Source: an uncultured Thermoanaerobaculia bacterium (lineage in GTDB: Bacteria > Acidobacteriota > Thermoanaerobaculia > Thermoanaerobaculales > Sulfomarinibacteraceae). Taken from it: DNA of 64,000 bases. Shown here in pieces: positions 9,749 to 31,441 of this stretch. The position numbers and the translations under genes were made by a program. Positions within the stretch are counted from its first letter, which is position 1; every line of letters starts with the position of its first letter. Under the pieces are notes generated by a model. It saw only the letters and a program-made list of their open reading frames with translations. It ran no database searches and was not told the DNA's origin. The stretch is from contig CAYQTL010000006.1 of assembly GCA_964420405.1 (NCBI GenBank), positions 11,483-75,482 on the forward strand, read 5' to 3'.

Positions 9749-9943
9749 ATGAGCGAAGCCGGATGTGCCACGTGCCCCTGGCGCGCGACATACGACCAGC
9801 GCCCGCGGTCGCTGCTGGGACGGCTGTGGAGGTTCCACGCCCGCCTCTGCCCCGGGTGGCGGGCGTACGTCACGGGGCTTCCCGACGAGGAGAGACGGGC
9901 GGTGATCGAGCGGTACGCCCTGCCCGCCCGGAAGCCCGCGTGA
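9749..9943 (+). CDS. small conserved-looking 4-Cys protein (64 aa)
   Basis: ATG 9749 after GGCGAGGAGG. MSEAGCATCPWRATYDQRPRSLLGRLWRFHARLCPGWRAY carries two Cys pairs (CxxC and one CPGW). Function unknown. Confidence 0.55.
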   Translation: MSEAGCATCPWRATYDQRPRSLLGRLWRFHARLCPGWRAYVTGLPDEERRAVIERYALPARKPA

Positions 9944-9964
9944 GCCGCTGCCGCGTCGGGGTGT

Positions 9965-10558
9965 CTACTCGATCGTGAAGCTCATCAGCTCGACCGGCAC
10001 CAGGGTGGCGGTCACCGAGTAGCTGCACAGGATCGACGAGGTGCTCGTCGGCGGGGGACCGTTGGAGTCCCACAGCGACCCGAGGTGCGTCGCGAGCCCG
10101 GTCGGCGCGACCGCCGGCGAGCTCGCCTTCCAGTCGTAGGGCTCGGCTCCGGCGGGACCGTAGGCCACGATCCAGTAGCTCGCGCCGGCGGTCAGCGTGG
10201 ACCCGGACGACGTGAAGTCGTAATTGGCGATTCCGGTCGCGCCGAACGTCGGGTTGGTCAGGGTCTCGATGGCCGCGCCGGGCTGACCGCCGGCGTCGCT
10301 CCACAGCTCGACGATCGGCGACACCCCGGGCGCCGGGACGTTGAGGCGCATCGTGACGTGGTCGAGGATGTAGTCCTGCCCCGCCGGCATGGTGAACCCC
10401 ATGCCCTTGTTGCGGGTGTCGTTGATGATCCCGGTCTGGGTGCCGTCGTCCCCGTCGAGGTTGCTGATCAGGACGGTCTGCGCCGCGACCGGCTGTGCGA
10501 GCAGACAGAGCACGACCAGCGCCGCCGACCCCACTACCCCGTGTGCACTGCGGAACAT
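9965..10558 (-). CDS. secreted protein of unknown function (197 aa)
   Basis: Signal peptide MFRSAHGVVGSAALVVLCLLAQPVAAQ, beta-rich Thr/Gly/Asn composition, ends ..LVPVELMSFTIE. Confidence 0.8.
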   Translation of the reverse strand: MFRSAHGVVGSAALVVLCLLAQPVAAQTVLISNLDGDDGTQTGIINDTRNKGMGFTMPAGQDYILDHVTMRLNVPAPGVSPIVELWSDAGGQPGAAIETLTNPTFGATGIANYDFTSSGSTLTAGASYWIVAYGPAGAEPYDWKASSPAVAPTGLATHLGSLWDSNGPPPTSTSSILCSYSVTATLVPVELMSFTIE

Positions 10559-10674
10559 CTTCTCCCCCTCCTTCTCCAGCTGGCCTATCGCAGAACGACT
10601 CTACCAGAAGAGGCAGCGGGGACGCAGCCGTTTCGGGCCCGGTTCGGAGTCTCCGGCAGCTCGCACCCGGACGG

Positions 10675-11370
10675 TCAGACGGGGTCCTGGAACCGCTCGC
10701 AGAACCGTCCGAGGGCGTCGCGGACGCCGTCCCGCTTGGCGGCGACCGTGGTCCACGGCCCGCGCGCGATCTCGATCTGGATCCACGGCATCTCGCGGCC
10801 GTGCCGGCGGGTGATGTAGCCGCCCGAGAACGGTCGGTTGACGGCGGGCCGGATGCCGAAGGCCGCGCCGAAGCACGACGTCAGCTCGGCGGTCCAGGCC
10901 GGCGGACAGCTGGCGCCGTTCGCGTCACCGAGGCACACCTCCGGCCGCCGGCTTCCGGGGTCCGGAGCCACAGGGGGTGCCACCGCCGCCATGGTGTGGC
11001 AGTCGAACGCCACCGGAACGGTCCTGGCGAGCGCTGTCAGGTGCTCGTGGTACGGGGTCCAGTAGCGCTCGACGAGCAGCCGTGCCACCTCGTCCGCGAG
11101 CGGACGTCGCCAGACCGGGACGTTCCAGCAGGTGTGGGTCTTGACCACGCCGTCGCGACGCCGGTCGTCCGGCGCGCGGTTGAGGTCGACCACCGCTCGC
11201 GCCACCCCGGTGGTGATGAAGCGCGCGACGTGGCGCTCGAGGTCGTAGATCGCGGCGGCCTCCTCGTCGCCGTCCCGGGCGATCTCGTGATCGGGCGCCG
11301 CCCGCAGGGGCTCCACCTCCGGCGGGACGCCGAGCCCGGCGTGGGGCACCGACACCAGGGCGGGGATCAC
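10675..11370 (-). CDS. N-formylglutamate amidohydrolase (FGase, PF05013-like) family protein
   Basis: The GTG start at 11370 overlaps the GGT stop (GTGA). VIPALVSVPHAGLGVP carries the family PHAG motif near the N-terminus. The track ORF extends upstream as Arg/Pro junk. Confidence 0.8.
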   Translation of the reverse strand: MIPALVSVPHAGLGVPPEVEPLRAAPDHEIARDGDEEAAAIYDLERHVARFITTGVARAVVDLNRAPDDRRRDGVVKTHTCWNVPVWRRPLADEVARLLVERYWTPYHEHLTALARTVPVAFDCHTMAAVAPPVAPDPGSRRPEVCLGDANGASCPPAWTAELTSCFGAAFGIRPAVNRPFSGGYITRRHGREMPWIQIEIARGPWTTVAAKRDGVRDALGRFCERFQDPV

Positions 11371-12950
11371 GACGGTCCCCCGGAGGTGCCGTCCCGCCGT
11401 GGATCGGCCGCGCCGAGGAAGCCCTCGCCGTCCCGGCGGACCAGCTGGACCGCGCCGAAGAAGTACGAGTACGGCTCCTCCTCCACGACCGTCCAGCCGT
11501 CGTCGCGCAGGGCCGCCAGGAGCTTCCTGCCCACGCGGGGAGCCTCGATCCGGAGCTCGCCCCCCGGCGACGCGTGCAGGCGGGGAGCGGCGATCGCGTC
11601 GGACGGCGCCGCCCCTCCGTCGATCCGGAGCAGCGACTGGGCGATCGCGGACGAGATGCGGGACGAGCCGGGCGATCCGACCACCTCCACCGGCATCCTG
11701 TCCCGGTACAGAATCGTCGGCGCAACGCTCGACCACGGGCGGCCGTTGGGCCGCAGCGCGTACGGATGGGCGGGATCGTCGTGACGGAACGCCGAGATGT
11801 AGCTGTTGTAGAGCATGCCCAGCTCCCGGTTGGCGACGCAGGCGCCCCAGAACAGCTCGATCGACTGCGTCAGGCCGACGGCGTTGCCGTCCGCGTCCAT
11901 CACCGACAGGTGGGTCGTGTCGCCGCCGACGCCTCCCGCGAGCTCGCGGGCGAGGACCTCGAGGCGGCGCTCGGCGAGCATGTCGTGGACCAGCTGGGCG
12001 TGACGTTCCGGATCGCGCGGCTCGCCCTCGTGGTCCTCGAGCGCCCGCCGGATCGCGCGCGCCAGGAATCGGGCGCCGGAGGCCCGGTCGGGATCCCGCA
12101 GGTCGAGCGGGCTGCGGTCGAGGACGTGGAGGATCTGGAGCAGCACGCGGCCGGCGCCGGCCGGCGGGAAGGTCGCCACCTCGAGGCCGGCGAACTCGCC
12201 CCGGTCGGGGTCCCGCTCGACCGGCCACGGGACCTGCAGCAGGTCGTCCCTTCCGATCAGCCCGTCGTGGGCTGCCATGTCGGCGACGATGGAGCTCGCG
12301 ATCGCGCCCTGGTAGAAGTCGCTGGCGCCGTGCTCCGCGAGCCGGCGGAGGGTGGCGGCCATCGCAGGCTGGCGAAGGGTGTCGCCCTCCCGGTAGGGGT
12401 CCTTCCCGTCGGCGAGGAAGAGCTCGGCGGCGGTTCCGGCCCGCAGCAGGTCGAGCTTGCTCTCGGCCAGGTGCTGCTGGAGCGAGCTCACCGGGAATCC
12501 CTCGTCAGCGAGCCGGATGGCCGGTCGCAGCAGATCCGGCCATGGCAGGCTGCCGTACCGGTCGTGGAGGTAGGCGAGGGTGGCGGGGGTGCTCGGCACC
12601 GTCGCCGCGCGGTAGCCCACCGACCTCGCCTCGGGAGGGATCGAGCGGGACGTCGCGTGGTTCGGCGCCCTGGACGAGCCGTCGAGAGCCACGGTGCGGC
12701 CGAGGCGCGCCTCGTGGAGCAGCGCCATCGTCTGCCCGGCCAGCCCGCTCGCCGAGGGCTCGCACACGCCCAGGGCGAAGGCCGCCGCCACGGCGGCGTC
12801 GAACGCGTTGCCGCCGGCGGCGAGCATCTCGGCGCCGGCGTCGGTTCCTCCCGGGTGCTGGGTCGCGACCATCCCGGCCTCCGACCGCGCCGTGCGCTCG
12901 CCCCAGGGCGGTCGCGCCGGGTCCGGCGTGGAGGGGATGCGGAGGGTCAC
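11367..12950 (-). CDS. ggt: gamma-glutamyltransferase-family Ntn hydrolase, no signal peptide
   Basis: The GTG start at 12950 overlaps the upstream stop (GTGA). GMVATQHPGGTDAGAEMLAAGGNAFDAAVAA is a typical GGT N-terminus. The autoprocessing nucleophile motif GGDTTHLSVMDADGNAV is intact. Confidence 0.9.
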   Translation of the reverse strand: MTLRIPSTPDPARPPWGERTARSEAGMVATQHPGGTDAGAEMLAAGGNAFDAAVAAAFALGVCEPSASGLAGQTMALLHEARLGRTVALDGSSRAPNHATSRSIPPEARSVGYRAATVPSTPATLAYLHDRYGSLPWPDLLRPAIRLADEGFPVSSLQQHLAESKLDLLRAGTAAELFLADGKDPYREGDTLRQPAMAATLRRLAEHGASDFYQGAIASSIVADMAAHDGLIGRDDLLQVPWPVERDPDRGEFAGLEVATFPPAGAGRVLLQILHVLDRSPLDLRDPDRASGARFLARAIRRALEDHEGEPRDPERHAQLVHDMLAERRLEVLARELAGGVGGDTTHLSVMDADGNAVGLTQSIELFWGACVANRELGMLYNSYISAFRHDDPAHPYALRPNGRPWSSVAPTILYRDRMPVEVVGSPGSSRISSAIAQSLLRIDGGAAPSDAIAAPRLHASPGGELRIEAPRVGRKLLAALRDDGWTVVEEEPYSYFFGAVQLVRRDGEGFLGAADPRRDGTSGGPS

Positions 12951-15058
12951 GTTGCCGGCCCGTCTCCCGCCACCATCAGGGCGAGCAGCACCGCCCGCGT
13001 CGCCAGGTCGGAGCGCCGGATCACCTCGGCGGCGCCGCTGCGCTCGGCGGGCGGACCGAGGCCCGTCAGGCACGGCACGGTCTCCGGCGCGAACCCGCAC
13101 AGGCTGGGAGGCGCCACCGACACCTCCGGGAGCCCGAAGCCCAGGACGGTCGAGTGGCGCCGCAGCTCGGCCAGCATCCGTTGGGAACCGATGTCGGGGC
13201 TGCGCGCCGGCACCGTTCCGACGTCGTCGAGGTGCCACCGGAGGCCGAGGGAGTCGAGGTGACGCCGTACCTGGCCGGTCCAGCGCTCGGCGTCGGTCTC
13301 GCGCGGGAAGCCCAGCACGAGCTCGGCCTCCAGGCGGTGCGGAGGCTGGCCCGCCTCGGCCGCCGTCGCGATCCGGTGGATCCGGGGTCGCGGTCCCCGG
13401 TGGGGCGTCAGCACGCGTTCCAGGACCGGCAGCATCCGCTCCACCAGGTCGCCGCCGTCGTCGCCGGGAGGAAGCGAGACCGCCAGCGCGAGCTCGATCT
13501 CGCCGGTGGCCGCGGCCGCCGGCGCCAGCCCTGGCTCGACCCCGAGCACCCTCCGGGCGCTGGACAGCGCTCGTCGGAGCATGTCGCCGCTCCACCGGCA
13601 GCGGCGACCCCGGTCGCCGCACGCGACGACTGCCGTCGACCCGTGGTCGAGGCGGCCGTTCTCCGCCGCCACCCGCAGGGCCTCGAGCGCGATCGCCAGG
13701 GGCGCCCGGGTGGACGCGACGCCCTCTCCCGCCACGACCTCTCCGTCCCGGCGTGTCGTCATGGGTGGCGCCGACGGAGTGACCGGGACGTCGAGCGCCA
13801 GCGCCAGCACGGTCGCGGTGTCGATGCCGTCCGTCGTCCAGGTCCAGACGGTCTCGCCGTCGGTCAGCTCGGGATCCGGCGTCAGTCCGAGCTCGTCGAG
13901 CTCGCCTGTCAACCGGCGGGCGGCGGCGGACGCGGCCCCGGGCTCCGCGGTCCGGCTCGCGGTCGCGGTCCACGCCAGCAACCGGTCCTCGATCTCGCCG
14001 CGGCGGGCGGTGACCGCAGCCGCGATCTCCTCGGGCACGTTCCGAGCGGTCCGCCGCGCGGCCGGGCGGGCGGTGGCCCCGAAGCAGCGACCGGCCGCCT
14101 CCTGGACCAGCCGGTCGACCAGGGCCCGGTAGTCGAGCCCGGCGGCGGCCGCGGCCCGGGCGTAGGGTCCGGCCGGCAGCAGCCCGGGGATGCTGTTCAC
14201 CTCGAGGAGGAACAGCCGGCCGTCCTCGTCGAGCCGCAGGTCGGCGCGGCCGAGGTCGCGACATCCGAGCTCCTGGAACGCCTCGACCGCGATCCGGCGG
14301 GCCTCGTCCGCCACGCCGTCGTCGATCGGCGCCGGCACCTCGTAGCGAAGCTCGCGACCTTCGAGCTCCTTGTCCTCCTGCCGGAAGAGGTCTGGCGGCC
14401 GACCGTCGATCAGCAGCTCGACCACCGGCAGCGCACGGGGCGGGTCGTTCCCTACGAGACCGACGTACAGCTCGCGCCCCGCGACGTACCGCTCGATCAG
14501 CAGCGGCTGACGGAACCTCTCGGCGACCCGCCCGGTGACCCGGCGCAGGGCCGTGGCGTCGGAGGCCATCTCGAGGCCGAGAGAGCCCGCCTCGTGGCGG
14601 GGCTTGACGATGACCGGGAACTCGATGCCCGCGGCATCGTCGACCGCGCCGTCCGACACCCGGAACTCTGGTGTCGGCAGGTCCCGGCGCGCGAAGACCA
14701 TCTTGGCGACCACCTTGTCGAGCGCCAGCGAGTGCGCGAGGGGGCCCGAGCCGACGTACGGCAGCCCGAGCATCTCCAGGACGCTCGGCACGTGGGTGTA
14801 GCGGGCCCGGCCCTGGATGCCGTAGGCGAGGTTGAACACCAGGCCGGGCTCCTCTCCCGGGATCGTGGACGGCAGCTGCTGCGTGAGACGGTCGACGAGG
14901 TCGACGCCGTCCTCCACCGCCGCCACGTCGTGGCCGGCGGCCTCCAGCGCGTCGATCACGGCTTCGACGATCTCCGGCTCGATCACCTCGCGGTTGGGGC
15001 GGCCGCGGCGGTTGAGGACCTCGGGGTCGGGGGGGGTGAAGACGACGACGACACGCAT
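12947..15058 (-). CDS. fusion protein: D-Ala-D-Ala-ligase-like ATP-grasp domain plus degenerate M20 (ArgE/DapE/CPG2)-like domain (703 aa)
   Basis: Internal ATG 15058 (MRVVVVFTPP) after GAAGGCGG. ATP-grasp motifs PVIVKPRHEAGSLGLEM and GRADLRLDEDGRLFLLEVNSIPGL. The C-terminal ~370 aa follow the M20 peptidase order, but the expected metal and catalytic residues are substituted (see findings). Confidence 0.85.
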   Translation of the reverse strand: MRVVVVFTPPDPEVLNRRGRPNREVIEPEIVEAVIDALEAAGHDVAAVEDGVDLVDRLTQQLPSTIPGEEPGLVFNLAYGIQGRARYTHVPSVLEMLGLPYVGSGPLAHSLALDKVVAKMVFARRDLPTPEFRVSDGAVDDAAGIEFPVIVKPRHEAGSLGLEMASDATALRRVTGRVAERFRQPLLIERYVAGRELYVGLVGNDPPRALPVVELLIDGRPPDLFRQEDKELEGRELRYEVPAPIDDGVADEARRIAVEAFQELGCRDLGRADLRLDEDGRLFLLEVNSIPGLLPAGPYARAAAAAGLDYRALVDRLVQEAAGRCFGATARPAARRTARNVPEEIAAAVTARRGEIEDRLLAWTATASRTAEPGAASAAARRLTGELDELGLTPDPELTDGETVWTWTTDGIDTATVLALALDVPVTPSAPPMTTRRDGEVVAGEGVASTRAPLAIALEALRVAAENGRLDHGSTAVVACGDRGRRCRWSGDMLRRALSSARRVLGVEPGLAPAAAATGEIELALAVSLPPGDDGGDLVERMLPVLERVLTPHRGPRPRIHRIATAAEAGQPPHRLEAELVLGFPRETDAERWTGQVRRHLDSLGLRWHLDDVGTVPARSPDIGSQRMLAELRRHSTVLGFGLPEVSVAPPSLCGFAPETVPCLTGLGPPAERSGAAEVIRRSDLATRAVLLALMVAGDGPAT

Positions 15059-15309
15059 CAGACCACCGCCTTCAACGTGGCCGCCGGTCAGGGGCTTTCG
15101 CCGGCGGACAGGACGGAGCCGGTTTTCCGGGAGCCCCCGACGGCTGCGCAGGGGCACACCGGACGTACCCCGGTCAACGCGTCGGCCTGGGACGGCGGTG
15201 AGGGACCGACGGAGGCGGTCTGGCGGAGGAACCGCCGGACGGGATCGGGCCACTGCGGTGACCCCACCCCCCGTTCCCGCGGCCGCCGGGGGTGGTCGGT
15301 CCGCGGTCC

Positions 15310-15750
15310 TCAGTACACGTCGACCACGGGGCCGGACCCTCTCAGACATGCGGCGAGCGCCCCCGGGCTCGGGGCGGCCGACATGGGCCAGGCCGTGGCT
15401 GCCGGTGGGGCGGTCGAGGGAGTATGGCTGCACCGAGCGGGACCGCAGCTCGGCGGCGTCGCCGAGCCAGGCCTTCGGGTCTCGCAGGCCGGAGCTGCCC
15501 TCCTCACCGGCGGCGACGAGGGTCTGAGTTGTCGACGTCCGGCAGACCGGCGAGCGAGACCGTCGAGGATGCCGGCGAGAGTGACTCCCGCGGCGGGACG
15601 GTCGTACCGGCCCGGCGACTCCTCGGTGCCGACGCAGTCGAAGGGGCTCAGCTCGCGCCGCGGAGGCAGGAGGTCGATGCCGAGCGAGCGGCCGCGGCGG
15701 CGTGAGGCCACCGGGCCGTGCACGGCGCCGCGCTCCAGCCCGATCGTCAC
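15310..15750 (-). pseudogene. decayed radical-SAM-like ORF coupled to the MocR gene
   Basis: The GTG at 15750 overlaps the MocR stop (GTGA) and follows GGAGGTGG. VHGPVASRRRGRSLGIDLLPPRRELSPFDCVGTE resembles a radical SAM N-terminus (GPV.SRR.GRSLGI.L.P..C...C..C) but only one Cys is left. High GC3 stops near 15545 and resumes in another frame that ends at TGA 15344..15342. Confidence 0.4.
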
Positions 15751-17234
15751 GTCGCCACCTCCGCCGGCCGGAGGTCGCCGATCGCGCGACCCAGGCGTGC
15801 GATACCGTCCTCGATCGCCGGCTCGTCGAGCATCGAGATCGAGATCCGGAAGCTGGGTCGTGGCGCCGGACCGGGAAAGAAGTGCCGGCCCGGCGCGACC
15901 GCGACCCTGTGTCGCTCGCACAGTGCGTCGAGGCGGGAGGGGTCGACGGTCCCCGCCCGCAGGCTGATCCACACCAGGTAGCCCCCGGCGGGCTCCGTCC
16001 AGGACACGAGGTCCGCCGGGAGGTGCCTGCGCAGGGCGTGCTGGGCGACCTCCATCCTCCGCCGGAAGACCTTGTGCATGCGCCGGACGTGAGCGTCGTA
16101 GTGTCCCTGCCGGCAGAGCTCGGCCATCGCCGCCTGGAGGACCCCCGACGACGACAGGTCGCTGAACCGCTTGACGGCGGTCAGCCGCCGGATGCACTCG
16201 GGGTCCGCGATCACCCAGCCGACGCGCACGCCGGGGAAGAGCACCTTCGAAAAGGTGCCCAGGTAGATGACGACCTGGGAGGCGTCCATGGACTTGATCG
16301 GCAGGGTGACGCCACCGAGGTACTTCATCTCCTCCTCGAAGCCGTCCTCGACGAGGGGCAGCCCGTGGCGGCCGCACAGCTCGAGCAGCCGTTCGCGATG
16401 GCTCTGGGAGGTGGTGATGCCGGTGGGGTTGTGGAAGTTCGGGATGGTGTAGAGCAGCCGCGGGCGCTCCCGCGCGAGCAGACACTCGAGGTGGTCGAGG
16501 TCGAGACCGCCGTCACCCATGGGCACGGCAAGGGCCTCGAGACCGTGTCCCGCGACCAGCGGGATGACCGCCGAGTAGGTCGGCGCCTCGAGCGCGACGG
16601 GGGAGCCCGGCGGCGCGAGCAGCCGCAGGACCAGGTCGATCGCCTGCTGCGAGCCGTTGGTGATCAGCACCTGCTCCGGGCTCACGGCCATGCCGTGGGT
16701 CCTCGCGCGCTCGGCGATGGCGGTCCTCAGGCTGGGCTCGCCCCGGCGGTCGCCGTACCGCAGCAGGCGGTCGCCGTCCCGGGCGAGCACCCGGTTGAGG
16801 CAGCGGCGGAGCTCGTCGCGTGGAAACAGCCGCGGATCCATGTCGAGTCGGCTCAGGTTGACGAACCCGTCGGCCTCGTCCCGGTGGTCGAAGTCGACGT
16901 CGTGCTCGAGGAGGGCCGCCGCCGCCTCCGACGTCAGGCGCTCCCAGTCGATCGCCCCGGACCCGGCGCGCAGGGGCTCGGCCACCAGGCGGGGACGGGC
17001 GCGGACGCGGGTGTAGGAGCCGGCGCGGCTGTCGGCGTAGCCGAGCGCCCACAGCTCGTCGTACGCCCTGCACACGGTGCTCCGGTTCACGCCGAGCCTC
17101 TCTGCGAGAGCGCGGGTGGAGGGCAGGGCGGCATCGACCGCGAGGGTGCCGTCGTCGACGAGCGTGCGGATCTGTTCCACGATCTGTCGCCAGATCGGGA
17201 TGCCCGAGCGGCGGTCGAGATGCGGCAGGATCAT
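15747..17234 (-). CDS. MocR/GntR-family PLP-dependent transcriptional regulator (495 aa)
   Basis: Internal ATG 17234. N-terminal GntR wHTH LPSTRALAERLGVNRSTVCRAYDEL. C-terminal fold-type I aminotransferase domain with LGTFSKVLFPGVRVGW (PLP lysine) and PNFHNPTG. Confidence 0.9.
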   Translation of the reverse strand: MILPHLDRRSGIPIWRQIVEQIRTLVDDGTLAVDAALPSTRALAERLGVNRSTVCRAYDELWALGYADSRAGSYTRVRARPRLVAEPLRAGSGAIDWERLTSEAAAALLEHDVDFDHRDEADGFVNLSRLDMDPRLFPRDELRRCLNRVLARDGDRLLRYGDRRGEPSLRTAIAERARTHGMAVSPEQVLITNGSQQAIDLVLRLLAPPGSPVALEAPTYSAVIPLVAGHGLEALAVPMGDGGLDLDHLECLLARERPRLLYTIPNFHNPTGITTSQSHRERLLELCGRHGLPLVEDGFEEEMKYLGGVTLPIKSMDASQVVIYLGTFSKVLFPGVRVGWVIADPECIRRLTAVKRFSDLSSSGVLQAAMAELCRQGHYDAHVRRMHKVFRRRMEVAQHALRRHLPADLVSWTEPAGGYLVWISLRAGTVDPSRLDALCERHRVAVAPGRHFFPGPAPRPSFRISISMLDEPAIEDGIARLGRAIGDLRPAEVAT

Positions 17235-17265
17235 GGGCCCCTCCCCGTGGAGCAGGGATACCTCC

Positions 17266-17293
17266 AAATCGGTCGGTTCACAACATCCGATTT
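17266..17293. promoter_or_regulatory. inverted repeat upstream of the MocR gene (candidate operator or promoter element)
   Basis: AAATCGG-N14-CCGATTT, unusually AT-rich for this sequence, 32 nt upstream of the MocR ATG in the divergent region shared with the histidine kinase gene. Confidence 0.3.
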
Positions 17294-17670
17294 CCGGCAA
17301 CGTCTCACCATCCAGTTGGTCGGAGGACCGTCGCGTGTACGGGACCGTTGTCTCCGGGGCCGGGGCTCGTTCCGGGCGCTCCCGGCCGAGGGGCCGACGG
17401 TTCCGTCCCGGGCCCGAGATCGGGTCCACCGACCGAGTCTGCGCGCATCTGGCTCGTGCTCGAGGCCGAGACGGGACGGGAGGGGCAGCCCGGGCTCGGC
17501 GGTTGGGGGACGTGGAGGCCGCCCGCGGTGCGCGTCGAGGCGATCGTGCACCGCGGGCGGCGGCGGGATGGGTGTATCCTGAGATCACGGACGGATCCGA
17601 AGTCCAGACGGGTGAGAAAGCCTCCGCTGCTTCGCGGTTTGTCCGGCGGGCTGAACGAGGAGGTGGTGCC

Positions 17671-20600
17671 GTGAGCGCTCGGACCCCGACCTCCGCGGAT
17701 GCGTTGCGGGCGATCCGACGCCTCCACCACCTGCTCGATCGCCACGGGGACATGCAGGGGCTGATCCGGGATTCCTGCGAGACCCTCGCGGGCGGGCTCG
17801 GCTACCCGGGTGTACGGATCGCTCTGCTGGGCGACACCGCGCCCCCGGTGGTCGCTGTGGCCGGGACTGGAGCCGGCGGGCTCGGTGCGCCTACGGACGC
17901 CGGAGCCGAGGTCGGTGGGCTGCCGCCGTGTCTGGCGTGGAGCATCGCCGACGGCGCGACCGTCTCGACTCTCCCTCCCTCTCTCGAGTGCGAGACATGC
18001 TGGGTGCCGGGTGGGGCGCCCCGGGAGGCGGTCGAGTGCCGGCGGGTCATGCTCGGGGGCTCGGGGACTGCGATCCTGTCGGTGGCGCTGCCACAGGGTG
18101 CCGGTGGGGCGCCGGATGAGGAGAGTCTGCTCGGCGGACTCGCGGACGTCCTCGCGTTCGTGGTGCGGGCCGCCGGTACCCTCGAGCGAGGGCCGTGGTT
18201 GGACGAGCTGCTGCTGCGGTCAGGGGAGAGCTTCACGCTCGCGTTCCGCGCAATCCCTGACGCCATGCTGCTGACGACGGCATCAGACGGTCGGATCGTC
18301 GAGGTCAACCAGGGCTTCACAGCGATGTCGGGGTTCGCCGAGGGGGAGGCCGTGGGGCGGACGACCGCCGACCTGGGACTCTGGATGGACCCTTCGGACC
18401 GGGAGACGTACGTCGGCCGGGTGCTGCGGGACGGTTCGGTGCGCGACCTCGAGATCCGCCTCCGGAAGCGGGACGGGTCGCCGCTCCGCGGGCTCGTGTC
18501 GGGGACCACGATTCCGACCCGGGAGGGAGAGCTGGTTCTCAGCATCGTCCGAGACGTGACCGAGCAGCGACGAGCCGAGGAGGCGCTCAGGGAAAGCGAG
18601 CGGCGTCTTCGCAGCTACCTCGAGCACGCCCCTCACGGGGTCTTCCTCTGCGACCGCGAAGGGCGGTACCTGGACGTCAACGCCGCCGCGGCGCGGATGA
18701 CGGGTTACTCCGAGGAGCGGCTGCGGACGATGACCGTCGAGGACGTTGCCTGGCCAGTCGACGGAGGGGTCGGCCGCGAGCACTTCGAGCGGCTGCTCTC
18801 CACCGGCGCGTCCACAGGCGAGGTGGCGTACCGCCATGCCAGCGGTGAGAAGCGATGGTGGAGCCTGTCGGCTGTCCGCTTGGACGACGACCGCTGTCTC
18901 GGATTCGCGGAGGACGTCACCGAGCGGCGCCAGCGCGTGGAGCGGATCTCGCTGCTCGGGATGATGCTGGACCAGGCGCCTGCCGCGATCACCATCCACA
19001 CCACCGACGGGCGCTTCATCTACGCCAACCGGCAGGCGGTGCGCCTGCACGGCTACGACGACGAGTCGGAGTACCTCGCACTGAACCTGCACGAGCTCGA
19101 CGCTCCCGAGAGCGAAGCGCGGATCGCCGAGCGCATGAGGTCGATCGCCGAGACCGGCGAGGCCCGCTTCGAGGCGGTCCACTTCCGGCGCGACGGCACC
19201 ACGTTCCCACTCGAGGTTCTCGCCACGCAGATCGACTGGCACGACGAGCCGGCGATCCTCAGCATCGCGGCCGACATCTCCGGGCGCCGAGAGGCCGAGG
19301 AAGCCCTCAGCGTCGCGCTGGAGAAGTACCGCGTCCTGTTCGAGGCTTTCCCGTTGGGGATCAGCGTCACCGACGAGCAGGGCCGGATCGTCGAGGTCAA
19401 CCGGGAGTCGGAGCGGCTTCTCGGTGTCGCCGTGGGCGAGCACCTCGAGCGGACCATCGCCGATCCAGGCTGGCGGATCGTGCGGCCCGACGGCAGCGCG
19501 ATGCCGCCGGAAGAGTACGCGAGCGTACGGGCGTTGCGCGAGCGGCGCGCCGTGGGCAACGTCGAGATGGGAATCGTGCGGCCGGATGGAGCGACCACCT
19601 GGATCAACGTCACCGCGGCGCCGATCCCGTTGCCGGGGTACGGCGTGGCGATCACCTATGGCGACGTCAGCTCCCGGCGGCAGGCCGAGGAGGAGCGGGA
19701 GAACCTGCGCGAGCAGCTGCAGCAGGCGCAGAAGATGGAGTCGATCGGCCGGCTGGCGGGTGGAGTCGCTCACGACTTCAACAACATGCTCGGCGTGATC
19801 CTGGCGCGTGCCGAGCTGATGCTCCTGCAGATGCCGATGGACGCGACCTGCCGTGAGGGTCTGGAGGAGATCCGCACGGCGGCGCTCCGGTCGGCGGACC
19901 TCACCCGGCAGCTGCTCGCTTTCGCGAGGAAGCAGACGATCGCACCTCGCGTGCTGGACCTGAACGCCACCGTCGGGAGCACACTGGCGATGCTGCGGCG
20001 GCTGATCGGCGAGGACCTCGAGCTGGAGTGGCGGCCTGGGGCCGAGCTCTGGCCGGTGATGATGGACCCCGCTCAGGTGGACCAGGTGCTCGCCAACCTC
20101 TGCGTCAACGCCCGGGACGCCATCGAGGGTCCCGGGCAGGTGACGATCGAGACCGCCAACGTCGTCATCGACCAGGGCTCGTGCGGCCTCGGCGAGGGTC
20201 TTCGGCCGGGCTCGTACGTGCAGCTGACGGTCAGCGACACCGGCTGCGGCATGAGCCGGGACGTGCTCGGGCGGGTCTTCGAGCCGTTCTTCACCACCAA
20301 GGAGATGGGGCGGGGAACGGGTCTCGGTCTCGCGACGGTGTACGGCATCGCCCGGCAGAACGCAGGAGCGGTGCGGGCCTACAGCGAGCCAGGACAGGGG
20401 AGTACCTTCAAGATCTACATCCCGGCGGAGGTCGGTGGGGTGGTGAGCCCCGTCGTCGAGACGCGAGCGACGGTCCCGTCGGCGCGGGGTGAGACGATTC
20501 TGCTGGTCGAGGACGACCCAGCGATCCGCGAGGCGGTGACCGGGATGCTCGAGCAGCTGGGGTACGCGGTGCTCTCCGCCCCCGAGCCGGATCAGGCGCT

Positions 20601-20859
20601 GGAGGCCGCTCGCCGGTATCCCGGTCGGATCCACCTGCTGATCACGGACGTTGTGATGCCACGGATGAGTGGTAGGGAGCTGGCCACGGAGGTCGCCGCG
20701 GCGCGCCCGGGAACTCCGGTCCTGTTCATGTCGGGGTACACGGAGAACGTGGTCGCCCACCGGGGTGTTCTGGACGAGGACGTGAGCTTCCTGCAGAAGC
20801 CGTTCTCCCTGCAGCAGCTCGGGGCGACGCTGCGGGAGCTGCTCGATCCCGCCAGCTGA
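17671..20859 (+). CDS. hybrid sensor histidine kinase/response regulator with GAF-like domain and four PAS domains (1062 aa)
   Basis: GTG 17671 after GAGGAGG. Four PAS cores are present ([68 protein letters not shown]). H-box [17 protein letters not shown] boxes [25 protein letters not shown], and a C-terminal receiver (ILLVEDD...[13 protein letters not shown]). Confidence 0.9.
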
Positions 20860-20902
20860 GGCGCCGCGCACCTTGCCTGCGGCGCCCCTGTAGGATGTCG
20901 GG

Positions 20903-27198: not shown

Positions 27199-27981
27199 TC
27201 AGCGGTTCTGGTTGTTCTCGAAGAAGTCGAAGTCGACCGAGATGGCGGCGGCGAAGATCACCGCCTTCTGCTCGTCGGTCCAGCCGCCCTCGCCGAAGTC
27301 GACGCCGAAGTTGTCGGCGTCGGTGAAGTACTCGCGGCCGAGGCCGGACCACTTCTTGGCGATCATCGCCCGCTCCCGTCCGTCCGCGTCGAGGACCGGG
27401 AACGTCCAGATCCGGATGTGGCGGCTCTCGATGTGCGCGAAGACCTCGCCACGGGCGTCCTCGAGGTCGTACCGGCGGTTCAGGATCGCGAAGCGGCGCC
27501 GCACCCGCCCCAGCAGGCGTCCGGTGGGCCCCTTCACGTCGAGTGACGAGAACAGCAGGAAGAACGGCCGCTCGAGCGTCAGCACCACCTCGTCGGCCTC
27601 GGAGAGGACTGCGATCTCGAACGGTCGGTGCGAGCCCGCGACGATCCGGACGAGGGCGGCGCCGATGCCGGTGCCCTGCTCGACGATCGCGCCGAGCGGT
27701 CGCCGCATGGCGTCGGAGACGGCGTACTGGTTGCGCTGCTCGAGGTTGGCCAGGATCTCCCACCAGTGGCGGTGGTACTGCTCGATGTACAGGCGGTCGG
27801 CCTCGGAGATCATCCGGCGGAAGCCGAACGAGCCGAGGTCGCCGGCCGGCGCGACCGCCCGCGGCTGCCGGACCTCGGGATCCCGCACCTTGGCGAAGAT
27901 CACGCCGCACGCCTCGCACTCGGCGCCCGGCGCGCCCTGGTGGTGCCCGCACTTCGGGCACGTGCTCTCGACCCGGCTCAT
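27199..27981 (-). CDS. phospholipid-scramblase/LURP-one (PF03803-like) family protein with N-terminal zinc ribbon (260 aa)
   Basis: ATG 27981 after GGTGAGGA. N-terminal CPKCGHHQGAPGAECEACG (two CxxC). The body matches the scramblase pattern, including IAKKWSGLGREYFTDADNFGVDFGEGGWTDEQKAVIFAAAISVDFDFFE at the C-terminus. Confidence 0.8.
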   Translation of the reverse strand: MSRVESTCPKCGHHQGAPGAECEACGVIFAKVRDPEVRQPRAVAPAGDLGSFGFRRMISEADRLYIEQYHRHWWEILANLEQRNQYAVSDAMRRPLGAIVEQGTGIGAALVRIVAGSHRPFEIAVLSEADEVVLTLERPFFLLFSSLDVKGPTGRLLGRVRRRFAILNRRYDLEDARGEVFAHIESRHIRIWTFPVLDADGRERAMIAKKWSGLGREYFTDADNFGVDFGEGGWTDEQKAVIFAAAISVDFDFFENNQNR

Positions 27982-28081
27982 CGCATCCTCACCCGCACCA
28001 TCGCCCGTCTCCAGGCTACCAGAGACGGGTTGGGGGCGTCGGCCGTGCACCGGTTCGTGGGCCGCCACACCCTCCTCTCCC

Positions 28082-28200
28082 GATTCCGATCCCGATCCCG
28101 ATGGTGACGGCCGCCTTCAGCGGCAGCGACAGGAGACAGCGGCAGCGTCAGCGGCGGGGGACGGCGTCAACGGCTGAGGCGGGGGGAGCGACGGCAGCGT
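28082..28200 (+). repeat. (GATCCC)n element, copy E
   Basis: GATTCC GATCCC GATCCC GAT (28082..28102), followed by GGTGACGGCCGCCTTCAGCGGCAGCGACAGGAGACAGCGGCAGCGTCAGCGG, a right module like that of copy A. Lies in the divergent intergenic region. Confidence 0.7.
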
Positions 28201-28270
28201 GTCCCCTTTCCCGGCGGACCGGCGCGATCGGGTCCGAACGCGATCGAACCTACGGGAGGATCTGCGACCC

Positions 28271-31200
28271 ATGACCGACACACACCGTGCGCTGCACGTT
28301 TCCTTGTGGACCATGCTCGCGATCGCCCTGGCGGCGGGTGCCGCACGCGCACGGGCGGACTGCCCGCCCGATCCGCCGCCGCCCGACTGCGACAACAACG
28401 GGATGTTCGCCGGCGGGCGGTGGGAGCTGTCGGGGCTCTCGGGCACCTACACCCTCGCCGGCGACGAGGTGTTCTACCCGGACATCTTCTTCCCGGACTG
28501 GCAGGACGACTTCCACACCAGCGGCACGCTCACGGTGACGATGGGCGGCGGCCCGACCGAGAACTGGCTCGAGGTCGGGTGCGACGGCACCGTCACCGGC
28601 CAGCTCAAGGAGACCATCTCCGGCACCGTCGAGAAGATCGCCGACATCTCGTACTACGACCCGGTGACGTGTCCGTACCAGCCGGAGGACATGCTCTGGA
28701 ACCTCACGATCGAGCGGACCGTGGCCGTCACCGGCTCGGTCACCGGGACCGGCCAGCTCGACCTGGAGCTGTCGGTGGACACGGCGACCCTGGACTTCAA
28801 CGGCTCGCTCACTTTCGGGGTCGACTGCGTCGACTTCCACGGCACGGACTCCTTCCAGGACTTCGACCTCTCCGGCGACGTGGAGGAGATCCGGATGGCG
28901 GGGGGCTACGACCCGGTCGGCTGGAGGTACGAACCGACCATCACGCCGCTCGGCGCGACCACCTGGCTCGACGAGATCCTCCACCGGGTGGCCCTCAACG
29001 GAGGCCACCAGGGAACCGACGACACGGTGTTCGTGAACCCGACGCTCGACCCGCCGAACTCGACCCAGCCGCCGATCCAGTCCCACAACCTGTACCTGAT
29101 CCAGCACTCGGTGACGGTCACGGCCGAGTACCTGGAGGCCCAGGCCGAGCCCAAGGTGCCAGCGGTGACCTCGCTGGAGCTGCAGGAGCCCGCCCAGTAC
29201 CTGGCCGACGTCAGCGTGACGACTCGGGTGGTCGCCACCGTCGACTGGCGGGGCCTGACGCCGGGAACGGTGGAGTTCACCTACGGCGGGACGACCGAGA
29301 CGGTCCCGGGCGCGGACACCGTCACCTGGGATTTCGACGCCGGCCAGCCCGGCACGACCATCCAGGCCGTCGCCGAGGCTGGTGGCGAGCGCTCGCTGCC
29401 GTACGTCGTCAACACCCCCAAGGTGCCGGTCCCGGGCTGGGCCGGCTCGGCGTCCGACTGGAGCGGCAGCCCCGGAGTGAGCTACCGGGCGACGCTGGAC
29501 TGGCCGGTGTCGCTCGAGACCACCCGGACCCTCGACACGATCTCGCTGTTCACCGGCCCGTGGGGGATCTCCGGCTCGGCCTCCTCGGAGCTCAACGCCG
29601 CCGCCAGCTCGAGCGGCTCGCCCGCCGCCGGCGACATGACGACCCAGGCCGAGTTCCGGTTCGCGGGGCGCTCCGGCGCCTTCCACATGGAGGGACCCAA
29701 CGAGACCGTGCTCGCCTGCGACGGCCTCACGACGACCGGATCCGCCTCCGCCTCGACCTCCGGCGGCTCGTGGCAGAAGACCATCAATCCGCTGACGCTG
29801 ATTCCCGGCCTGGAGCCGGCGGTGTGCGGGCTCAGCGGCTTTTTGTGCGGTGTCGTCAACAGCGCGGGCGTCAAGGGCAGCGCGTCGGCATCGGTGACGG
29901 GCACCGCCACCTACACCGGCGCCGGCCCGGAGATCCTCTGGGACGGGGGCAGCGTCGGCGGCAGCCTGTCCGGCAAGATCGCCTTCGGAGCCTCCGTGCC
30001 GCCGCCGCTGTCGTCGGTGGCGGGGTTCGAGATCTACGGGTCCGCGACGGGCTGCCTCGAGTTCATGGTCGCGCCGTCGCTGGAGCTGACCGCGGTCGGC
30101 GGACACTTCGACGTCGAGGCCAGCGCGTGGTTCTTCGGCCTGGCGGCCGGGGTGGACGAGGACTTCCCGTTCGGCGATGCGTGCGCCAAGCAGACGCCGG
30201 ACGCCGCCGCCGCGTCGTCGTCGGGCTGGGTCCCGGCGGACGGCCAGCTGGCGATGGCGGCGGAGCGGGCCGGGGGGGTGCAGACCGGCATCGCGGTGTG
30301 GACCGAGACGCCCTCCGGCCAGGTCCGTCCTTCCGGGGACATCTGGTACCGGATCGAGACCGGCGGCGTCTGGGGACCGGGCATCCGGCTCACCGACGAC
30401 GCCGACTCCGACGTCGCACCGGCGGTCGATTTCGACGCGGCCGGTCGCGCGGTGATCGTGTACCAGCGCAGCACCGTGCCGCTGCCCGTCGTCCCTGCCG
30501 ACCTGCCGGCGTTCGCCGACGGCTACGAGCTGCACTGGGCGGCGATCGACCCGTCCACCGGTCTGACGGTCGGCGGCGGCCAGCTCACCGCCAACGGGTC
30601 GAACGACTTCGGCCCCCGCCTCCGGCGGGACGCCGCCGGCGGGCTGCACGTGTTCTGGCAGCGGGCGTCGGGCGTCGAGCTCGCCGGGACGGCGGCGGAT
30701 CCCGTCAGCATCCTGGCGGCGAGCTGGGACGCGTCGAGCGGCACCTGGAGCGGCGAGAGCGTCGCCGCCAGCGGCCTCGAGTCCACCTTCGGCTGGTCGC
30801 CCGCGGCCCACTCGGCCGACGACATGCTCGTGGGTCTCGTCGTGGACGTGGACGGCGACTTCGCCACCGCGGACGACCGCGAGGTCTTCCAGATCTCGAG
30901 GTCGTCCGGCTCCTGGGCGCTGCCGGTGCAGGTCACGTCGAACCTCGTGGCGGACGACTCGGTGCTGGCGGCGTTCGAGCCGGCCGGCGAGCCGGTGCTG
31001 CTGTGGCGGCGCGACGGCCAGGCGTGGCAGCTGCGGGGCGACCTGCACGGCCCGCCCGGGGCGGCCTTCACCTCGGCCGATCCGTCGGTGGACGACGGAA
31101 TCAGTGCCGCGCTCGGCGCCGGGACGATCGCCGCCGGGACCGACGGCGTGTCGGTCCTCTGGACCGAGGGCCTCGCGGCGAGCTTGACGCGCGAGAGTGC

Positions 31201-31441
31201 CGCTCCGCAGGGCTGGGAGGCGCCCACCTCGCCGTTCGCCACCGGCGACAGCGAGTCGGTCCACTTCCTGCGTTGGCTCGACGGCCGGCTGGTGGCGGGC
31301 TATGCGGTGCGGAGCTTCCAGAACGGCGCCGATCTCGCACCCACTGTGGAGCCCCGTTTCGCCGAGCTGCTGAACCCCGAGGTCTTCCGCGACGGGTTCG
31401 AGAGCGGGGACACCGGCCTCTGGAGCGTCGCGGTCCCGTGA
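28271..31441 (+). CDS. very large secreted protein of unknown function (1056 aa) with C-terminal GFESGD tag
   Basis: ATG 28271 after GGGAGGA. Signal peptide MTDTHRALHVSLWTMLAIALAAGAARARA followed by DCPPDPPPPDC. The C-terminal third has repeated blade-like units (IWYRIETGGVWGPGIRLTDD.., AVIVYQRS, LHVFWQRAS, PVLLWRRDG), suggesting a beta-propeller. Ends VFRDGFESGDTGLWSVAVP. Confidence 0.85.
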   Translation: MTDTHRALHVSLWTMLAIALAAGAARARADCPPDPPPPDCDNNGMFAGGRWELSGLSGTYTLAGDEVFYPDIFFPDWQDDFHTSGTLTVTMGGGPTENWLEVGCDGTVTGQLKETISGTVEKIADISYYDPVTCPYQPEDMLWNLTIERTVAVTGSVTGTGQLDLELSVDTATLDFNGSLTFGVDCVDFHGTDSFQDFDLSGDVEEIRMAGGYDPVGWRYEPTITPLGATTWLDEILHRVALNGGHQGTDDTVFVNPTLDPPNSTQPPIQSHNLYLIQHSVTVTAEYLEAQAEPKVPAVTSLELQEPAQYLADVSVTTRVVATVDWRGLTPGTVEFTYGGTTETVPGADTVTWDFDAGQPGTTIQAVAEAGGERSLPYVVNTPKVPVPGWAGSASDWSGSPGVSYRATLDWPVSLETTRTLDTISLFTGPWGISGSASSELNAAASSSGSPAAGDMTTQAEFRFAGRSGAFHMEGPNETVLACDGLTTTGSASASTSGGSWQKTINPLTLIPGLEPAVCGLSGFLCGVVNSAGVKGSASASVTGTATYTGAGPEILWDGGSVGGSLSGKIAFGASVPPPLSSVAGFEIYGSATGCLEFMVAPSLELTAVGGHFDVEASAWFFGLAAGVDEDFPFGDACAKQTPDAAAASSSGWVPADGQLAMAAERAGGVQTGIAVWTETPSGQVRPSGDIWYRIETGGVWGPGIRLTDDADSDVAPAVDFDAAGRAVIVYQRSTVPLPVVPADLPAFADGYELHWAAIDPSTGLTVGGGQLTANGSNDFGPRLRRDAAGGLHVFWQRASGVELAGTAADPVSILAASWDASSGTWSGESVAASGLESTFGWSPAAHSADDMLVGLVVDVDGDFATADDREVFQISRSSGSWALPVQVTSNLVADDSVLAAFEPAGEPVLLWRRDGQAWQLRGDLHGPPGAAFTSADPSVDDGISAALGAGTIAAGTDGVSVLWTEGLAASLTRESAAPQGWEAPTSPFATGDSESVHFLRWLDGRLVAGYAVRSFQNGADLAPTVEPRFAELLNPEVFRDGFESGDTGLWSVAVP

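Follow-up and report, generated by a model that had tools for sequence, protein, structure and literature searches.

We report that three adjacent reverse-strand genes of an uncultured Thermoanaerobaculia bacterium, which encode a fusion of a D-Ala-D-Ala ligase (Ddl)-type ATP-grasp domain with an M20-like domain, a homolog of gamma-glutamyltransferase (GGT) and a homolog of N-formylglutamate amidohydrolase (FGase), form an autonomous conserved module and one functional unit, a conclusion that we hold with high confidence. They lie in a stretch of 64,000 nucleotides (nt) of contig CAYQTL010000006.1 (assembly GCA_964420405.1, positions 11,483 to 75,482), and by the window we mean this whole stretch. 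The fusion gene (12947-15058, ATG start, 703 amino acids (aa), PF07478 at 117 bits) is followed by the GGT-family gene (11367-12950, GTG start, 527 aa, PF01019 at 352 bits) and the FGase-family gene (10675-11370, GTG start, 231 aa, PF05013 at 162 bits over its full length). The start of the GGT gene and the stop of the fusion gene share a GTGA overlap at 12947-12950, as do the start of the FGase gene and the stop of the GGT gene at 11367-11370, and the FGase gene is translationally coupled to its GGT-family neighbor.

The GC content of the window is about 72% and raw lists of its open reading frames (ORFs) are full of spurious frames; genes were called through the GC content of codon positions, which at third positions is 0.93-0.94 in all three enzyme genes in their correct frames, and domains were assigned from Pfam and NCBIfam profiles. 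A frame of 1,522 aa that runs antisense to the triad (11399-15967, forward strand) lacks coding-type codon bias; it is an artefact of high GC, and ORF length alone is weak evidence here. A preliminary description of this DNA had listed the genes and their coordinates, three GTGA overlaps, the motif GDTTHLSV and a missing signal peptide in the GGT homolog, and all of these are present.

The evidence for a module comes from other genomes. The fusion protein has more than 800 homologs of about 715 aa each, with 35-41% identity to the window copy. Relatives were scanned with one genome per species, which gave 291 positive genomes; neighborhoods were taken from the best 80 of these, in Planctomycetota, Verrucomicrobiota, Desulfobacterota, Gammaproteobacteria, Zixibacteria, Ignavibacteria, Nitrospinota, Acidobacteriota and others, and 72 of the loci carried enough downstream sequence to be informative. 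A GGT homolog lies directly 3' of the fusion gene in 67/72 informative loci and the full order fusion-GGT-FGase is contiguous in 60/72, with a 4-nt overlap between the GGT and FGase genes available in 51 of those 60 triads; an overlap between fusion and GGT genes equivalent to that in the window is available in just 11 of 67 other loci. When all neighboring ORFs were clustered, no family besides the triad occurred in more than 10 of the 80 loci, and it is because of this absence and of the 67/72 and 60/72 linkage that we regard the triad as autonomous. The preliminary description had taken the last three genes for one functional unit and had named beforehand a lack of conserved linkage as its possible refutation; the linkage is strongly conserved.

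Annotated examples of the triad are found in Desulfonema magnum, in a Zixibacteria metagenome-assembled genome (MAG) and in GCA_030426805. A Planctomycetales MAG (locus L033, 10157-13418) carries two tandem GGT homologs between the fusion and FGase genes. No specific curated family model exists for the triad, and a literature search with the terms ATP-grasp, Ddl, GGT, FGase and CPG2 and the Pfam names found no description of it, one survey of ATP-grasp enzymes being left unchecked. PMC4000134 concerns a different peptidase-like protein.

The triad of the window is a strain-variable cassette. The gene of a MocR-type regulator lies upstream of it, and the 90%-identity cluster of that regulator has a member on a 199-kb metagenome contig (L089). 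Both L089 and a second contig, L090, are 87-98% identical to the window in nucleotide sequence on both flanks, and the triad is missing from them; AbgT is followed there by DUF7452, two small genes, MocR, a radical-SAM gene that is intact, a 197-aa gene, SDR and CapA, in this order. By blastn, L089 11922-12249 corresponds to window 15634-15301 and L089 12303-15578 to window 10612-7338, and window 10613-15300 (4,688 bp) stands where L089 has 53 bp. This segment consists of a 242-nt leader 5' of the fusion gene (15059-15300, reverse strand, absent from L089), the three enzyme genes and a tail of about 60 nt. Its GC content is 0.748, as compared to 0.724 for the window, and the codon usage of the triad is that of the host (relative synonymous codon usage, r = 0.996), so that a recent foreign origin finds no support in composition. 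Flanking direct or inverted repeats, mobility genes, and tRNA-like or integrase features were looked for at the borders and none was found; nor was a sigma-70-like promoter or terminator consensus found there or in the leader, and a scan of 9800-17800 against Rfam gave no match. Since the borders carry no traces of mobility and the codon usage is host-like, the cassette either has been in this lineage for long and was lost from the relative, or has been passed between high-GC organisms that resemble one another.

It had been proposed that the MocR regulator, a radical-SAM remnant and the triad form a coupled operon of five genes; we find that only three of these cohere, and MocR as their regulator is not supported. 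The MocR/PdxR-like gene (15747-17234, reverse strand) encodes 495 aa with GntR and aminotransferase domains, scores above the NCBIfam cut-off for PdxR (NF052282, 341 bits versus 320) and has its nearest named relatives in Acidobacteriota MAGs. Its stop overlaps, through a third GTGA (15747-15750), the GTG start of an open frame at 15310-15750 on the same strand that is the remnant. Alignment to the intact ortholog in L089, which encodes 251 aa with the motif CPFDCVYC and overlaps MocR by 4 nt, establishes that the remnant is a true pseudogene, as had been suspected: 321 nt are deleted from it, with the loss of part of the CxxxCxxC motif, several indels are present besides, and third-position GC is coding-like only in the first ~45 codons. 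Its identification is owed solely to this comparison, since Pfam and NCBIfam profiles give no match to it up to E = 10.

Pairs of MocR and radical-SAM genes without the triad occur at MocR identities of at least 90% (L089/L090), 79% (L091/L092) and 57% (L093, an Acidobacteria MAG), the surroundings being different in L091/L092 and L093. The pair, conserved in several uncultured lineages, is found at window 15310-17234, L089 10001-12240, L091 2970-5209 and L093 6001-8272. The paired radical-SAM proteins are 251-256 aa long, with an N-terminus of the form GPVASRRLGRSLGINLLPP...CPFDCVYC, and form a family with no NCBIfam model; their genes usually overlap MocR, although in L093 the two are contiguous and 10 nt apart. 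Of the pair in the window, MocR is intact and its radical-SAM partner dead.

Because the pair recurs without the triad, because none of the 80 triad loci elsewhere has a MocR hit, and because the cassette is absent from L089, we conclude with equally high confidence that MocR and the remnant are a separate native pair and not parts of the module; the adjacency in the window reflects where the cassette happens to lie. A five-gene operon, in which MocR would sense a related metabolite and control the remnant and all three enzymes, is accordingly very improbable. Its genes do lie on one strand with the GTGA overlap of MocR and the remnant, and with no obvious terminator between them read-through is possible, but a 251-nt gap separates the stop of the remnant from the start of the fusion gene, and the triad lies in a segment that the close relative lacks. 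CapA and AbgT genes, whose linkage to the triad the preliminary description had rightly treated with caution, occupy the same relative positions in the triad-less relative and are ordinary neighbors.

A strain-variable cassette beside a decayed gene might itself be a decaying or drifted passenger, its ORFs open mainly since stops are rare at 75% GC. The window does hold very long spurious ORFs such as the antisense frame of 1,522 aa, its fusion protein departs from many residues conserved in the family, and the M20-like domain has lost two key residues more than its relatives have. We nevertheless consider this improbable. Each of the three ORFs can be aligned over its whole length with homologs at 40-55% identity, and over 4.4 kb of coding sequence aligned to distant homologs there is no frameshift and no stop; third-position GC is of the coding type, and the invariant residues of the ATP-grasp domain, the GGT nucleophile and 40 of 41 columns conserved in the FGase family are kept. 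The decayed radical-SAM gene shows the speed at which an unselected gene breaks in this lineage, and because 4.4 kb has stayed free of frameshifts while that adjacent gene decayed within about 10% nucleotide divergence, the comparison argues for selection on the triad, as does its host-like codon usage.

We turn now to the proteins. The ATP-grasp domain of the fusion (residues 1-330, 14069-15058) is a Ddl-type ligase domain by fold and probably something other than a Ddl by specificity. An AlphaFold2 model of the fusion (predicted local distance difference test, pLDDT, 85.7) matches DdlB and DdlA structures over this domain (Foldseek E 1e-25, target template modeling (TM) score ~0.8), and phmmer relates it to Pseudomonas aeruginosa DdlB at 3e-36. 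Equivalents of DdlB E15, K144, K215, R255, D257, E270 and N272 are invariant across the fusion family, and the residues that in DdlB serve ATP and Mg, the acyl phosphate and the amino group of the first substrate are kept. The pocket for the second substrate (D-Ala2) is not Ddl-like: when mapped to DdlB by motif, the position of Y216 varies, L282 corresponds to Tyr, and S281 corresponds to Ser across the family and to Pro in the window (S298P). A family-specific loop, GIQGQARYTH, aligns with DdlB 63-68, and R86, H89, R235 and R275 are additional invariant basic residues, of which canonical Ddl enzymes are not known to have equivalents. That the domain is no bona fide Ddl, as the preliminary description had proposed, is borne out by its scores, which fall under all NCBIfam Ddl cut-offs (NF002378, 166.7 versus 243 bits; TIGR01205, 146.9 versus 245.65), as do those of the D. 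magnum ortholog.

The remainder of the fusion (residues 338-703, 12950-14047) had been labeled M20-like, which is right by fold. Modeled alone with AlphaFold2 it reaches a pLDDT of 90.3, and its best fold match is carboxypeptidase G2 (CPG2; 6xj5/1cg2, E ~1e-17, TM 0.70), with catalytic and lid domains both represented; DapE-like M20 enzymes are also among the matches. The relationship can be seen in sequence for the family member P0074, whose domain matches CPG2 at 6.6e-13, and for some members a Pfam M20 match above threshold is obtained. The window copy has no Pfam M20 hit, and an exhaustive phmmer search with its domain returned family members alone and no canonical M20 enzymes. Across the family the CPG2 metal ligands are lost, the bridging D141 being replaced by Ser, E176 by an invariant Gly and E200 by Arg, and the window domain has in addition exchanged H112 for Ala and the general base E175 for Arg; this comparison covered the general base E175 and all di-zinc ligands of CPG2 but H385 (H112, D141, E176 and E200). 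With the zinc ligands lost, the domain cannot be a canonical metallopeptidase, and we take it for a pseudo-peptidase with conserved arginines.

The GGT homolog retains the catalytic Thr of its superfamily and has an altered acyl-donor pocket. The motif GDTTHLSV occupies residues 343-350, and Thr345 (codon 11916-11918, reverse strand), the predicted autoprocessing site and nucleophile, aligns with T391 of Escherichia coli GGT and is kept in 65/65 orthologs. Four residues that in E. coli hold the free alpha-carboxylate and alpha-amino groups of the donor are replaced: R114 by S92, with an Arg two residues on (subfamily 56/65), N411 by E365 (64/65), Q430 by Y384 (64/65) and D433 by A387 (55/65). 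R114 and N411 have already been listed as positions at which GGT clades differ, the Bacillus halodurans clade included (PMC4568574). The expectation that this is not a canonical GGT is in line with its score under the TIGR00066 cut-off (308.5 versus 357.85 bits), at which the D. magnum ortholog is borderline (359.5).

The proposed cytoplasmic location is upheld as well. No signal peptide is present in the GGT homolog or its orthologs; the stretch before the conserved GMVAT, where the mature fold starts, is only 26 residues long and non-hydrophobic, and orthologs typically have 31-34 residues of low hydrophobicity there. The public gene call for the identical contig places the start 78 nt further in, at an ATG. 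Since homology to solved GGT N-termini begins at residue 17, ahead of that internal ATG, alignment favors the overlapping GTG as the probable start.

The FGase homolog, by family a metal amidohydrolase, likewise departs from its namesake. Its score against the HutG equivalog model TIGR02017 is 79.1 bits, far under the cut-off of 278.75, which agrees with the earlier impression that the system matches no textbook route, and no hut genes were found in the window or in the related loci that we examined. Judged from these sequence comparisons, neither the GGT nor the FGase homolog is likely to perform the textbook reaction of its family name.

What might such a module do? We suggest that the ligase would convert an amino-acid-type substrate to the acyl phosphate at its alpha-carboxylate and couple it to a second substrate, an amine that itself bears a carboxylate; the partners are probably acidic (such as Glu, D-Glu or beta-Glu). 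With its many arginines, the dead M20 domain may contribute to the binding of a glutamate-type substrate or product, or it may be a docking site for the partner enzymes. The GGT homolog would cleave a gamma-glutamyl-type amide with alpha substituents unlike those of glutathione, and the FGase homolog an N-acyl-glutamate-type amide; CPG2 and FGase both act on N-acyl-glutamates. The two amidases would thus act on different amide bonds of the ligase product or of a derivative, and the outcome would be control over how much of a small glutamate-derived peptide or amide is present in the cytoplasm. Such a biochemical make-and-break cycle we put forward tentatively, as a reading whose probability stays clearly below one half.

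The neighbors of the triad in other genomes hint at a physiological setting. Channel genes stand beside it in at least six phyla, CorA in 10 loci, MgtE in 7 and MscS-type genes in 9, and by our estimate, which was not a computation, this is well above chance given their usual copy numbers. In several loci (for example L011, L026, L036, L009 and L058) they share its strand and abut it. A Phycisphaerales genome, for instance, has the triad between MgtE and CorA, a Zixibacteria MAG has CorA after it, and in Verrucomicrobiales and Solibacteraceae an MscS-like gene comes before it; coordinates of such loci are L011 6578-13569, L026 1231-6782, L036 7222-13898, L009 2153-8004, L058 7010-7912 and L070 12464-14972. 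The CorA, MgtE and MscS neighbors suggest a role in ion or osmotic balance, although taken by itself an osmotic or ionic role seems to us doubtful. So does the fullest version of the idea, that the triad is a widespread cytoplasmic cycle in which a glutamate-derived compound, possibly built on D- or beta-Glu, would act as a counter-ion or osmotic buffer in connection with Mg2+ and mechanosensitive channels, with the pseudo-peptidase domain recognizing the substrate; we would call it unlikely as it stands. The explanation as a whole, blended over anatomy, chemistry and physiology, is the one that we favor and comes close to an even chance without reaching it.

Several observations weigh against this favored explanation. 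If the ligase and the hydrolases had one compound in common, the result would be a futile cycle unless they were regulated, and the sources searched gave no characterized member of the family. In its textbook gamma-glutamyl version the explanation also suffers from the missing M20 metal ligands and the replaced donor-binding residues of the GGT homolog, the changes in the pocket making even the label gamma-glutamyl uncertain. The channel association concerns only about 17 of the 80 loci, some of them phylogenetically related, and the cassette of the window carries no channel gene. Moreover, the fusion protein of the window is an outlier in its own family: it differs at 44/163 conserved columns of the ATP-grasp domain (27%), S298P among them, and at 30/77 of the M20-like domain (39%), the best non-self match of the latter being 34% in an exhaustive search of representatives of ~15 billion proteins. 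Its specificity, or even its activity, may on this evidence differ from the family norm.

The same enzymes could instead serve an ATP-driven salvage or catabolic route without storage, in which the ligase would attach an amino acid to a compound otherwise unreactive and the amidases would release glutamate or ammonia together with the carrier, much as in urea amidolyase or in the pathways that gamma-glutamylate amines. A linear pathway would suit the tight coupling and fixed order of the triad, its variable contexts resemble those of an accessory nutrient module, and the two hydrolases would find their use on different types of bond. What such a route lacks is a consistently linked oxidoreductase or transporter, of the kind seen in Puu/Ipu-type gamma-glutamylation pathways, and a candidate substrate that could be named, and we judge it to be unlikely.

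Processing of D-Glu-containing stem peptides of the cell wall is another possibility, and an improbable one, that draws on analogy only. All four folds have relatives that act on stem peptides (Ddl, DapE-like M20 enzymes, GGT and N-acyl-Glu amidases), and the loss of the residues that bind the alpha-amino group would suit an N-acylated glutamyl donor; the GGT homolog might cut gamma-D-Glu-diamino acid bonds in N-acylated D-Glu and the FGase homolog the L-Ala-D-Glu bond, while the Ddl-like ligase would re-form a D-amino-acid dipeptide and the DapE/CPG2-like dead domain would bind the diamino acid or glutamate. Against this, neither mur, amp or mpl genes nor genes for peptide transporters recur as neighbors of the triad in the 80 loci.

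To an anti-phage defense or toxin-like system we attach the least credence of all. The triad of D. magnum does lie near Shedu-like (SduA_C), MazE/PemK and transposase genes, and the location of the cassette is island-like and variable among close relatives; however, neither the window proteins nor two orthologs have a PADLOC match, all of the parts are metabolic enzyme folds, and the contexts elsewhere are not defense islands.

Other families recur beside the triad at low frequency, namely a small kinase-like gene, a PP2C phosphatase, sigma-54 and extracytoplasmic function (ECF) regulators, and a KamA-family aminomutase. The last lies directly 5' of the fusion gene in L007 and L037 (and in L013, from the same contig as L007), at 3844-4983 in L037. 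Its scores for glutamate 2,3-aminomutase and lysine 2,3-aminomutase (LAM) are about the same, and it has Arg at the position of D293 in LAM; glutamate 2,3-aminomutase carries Lys there, which points to an acidic substrate, in keeping with the glutamate-type partners proposed above. In L007 (2088-7976), a Desulfarculales MAG, six genes precede the fusion, for an AblA-like lysine 2,3-aminomutase, two stand-alone Ddl-like ligases, GNAT, DUF4337 and a second KamA-family protein, which is the one with Arg at the D293 position, and this stretch may be a cluster for a beta-amino-acid peptide. The KamA-type gene was also considered as the ancestor of the remnant beside MocR and was rejected, the remnant belonging to the different, MocR-paired family of 251 aa.

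The kinase-like gene (240 aa, Pkinase/Kdo) is found at L005 12438-13160, L021 12438-13160, L068 12447-13160 and L054 2664-3377; it comes after the FGase gene, overlapping its stop in the gene calls for L005, and after the fusion gene in L054. The PP2C phosphatase gene lies directly 5' of the fusion gene in L036, whereas L016 and L033 have it in the vicinity. In D. magnum (CP061800; L002 5223-6027 and 7733-9495) the triad is preceded at a short distance by about 38 head-to-tail units of 68 nt, an array split by a DDE transposase gene in which each copy exceeds the gathering score of the Acido-Lenti-1 RNA (RF01687). The array is a pure tandem repeat rather than a CRISPR.

Within the window, the cassette is not the only segment absent from L089. 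Also missing there are 17292-20900, with a hybrid histidine kinase/receiver gene carrying four PAS domains (18199-20859), and 28045-31317, with a 1,045-aa ORF (28304-31441) to which Pfam has no match. The region is a hotspot for the gain and loss of segments between strains. A bacterial Scramblase gene (PF03803, 139.7 bits) at 27199-27981 is present in L089 too.

The interest of these findings lies more in the family of triads than in the divergent copy of the window. The proposed link to ion and osmotic physiology is testable, and cultured hosts of the triad exist in Desulfonema magnum and Thiohalocapsa halophila. The family offers what appears to be a clear example of how a peptidase fold became the non-catalytic partner of a ligase, and a GGT subfamily with a rebuilt donor pocket.

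Pairings of an ATP-dependent amide ligase with an amidase or an M20-type enzyme have precedents in glutathionylspermidine synthetase/amidase, the N-acetylglutaminylglutamine amide (NAGGN) cluster (Ngg/AsnO/peptidase), LysX-LysK of the LysW pathway and the glutathione degradosome Dug2-Dug3 of yeast. These concern small gamma-glutamyl or dipeptide compounds in the cytoplasm, employ other ligase subfamilies and hydrolase folds, and have peptidase domains that are catalytically active; we know of none that combines Ddl-type, dead M20, GGT and FGase parts. The first domain of the fusion shares with the Ddl/VanA family the ATP-grasp fold of three subdomains, the nucleotide, Mg and acyl-phosphate residues and the Glu for the first substrate, and differs in the GIQGQARYTH loop, the variable Y216 position, the extra invariant Arg and a fused domain of 370 aa, its gene never standing in a cell-wall context in the loci examined. 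The second has the two lobes, catalytic and lid, of CPG2 and the M20 family (DapE, ArgE, PepT, carnosinase), but Ser, Gly and Arg in place of the bridging Asp, Glu176 and Glu200, with His112 and Glu175 gone as well in the window. With the GGTs of E. coli and Bacillus and the GGT-like acylases the GGT homolog has in common a full-length PF01019 match, the Thr nucleophile, the SS motif and the oxyanion-hole region; unlike canonical GGT it is cytoplasmic, with S/E/Y/A for R114/N411/Q430/D433. The FGase homolog belongs with HutG to the PF05013 fold family and keeps its conserved positions, but it falls far under the equivalog cut-off and has no hut context. On such comparisons the parts of the triad are members of known superfamilies, though each fails defining tests of its named family, and the labels D-Ala-D-Ala ligase, gamma-glutamyltransferase and N-formylglutamate amidohydrolase, where they are attached to triad genes, are probably wrong.

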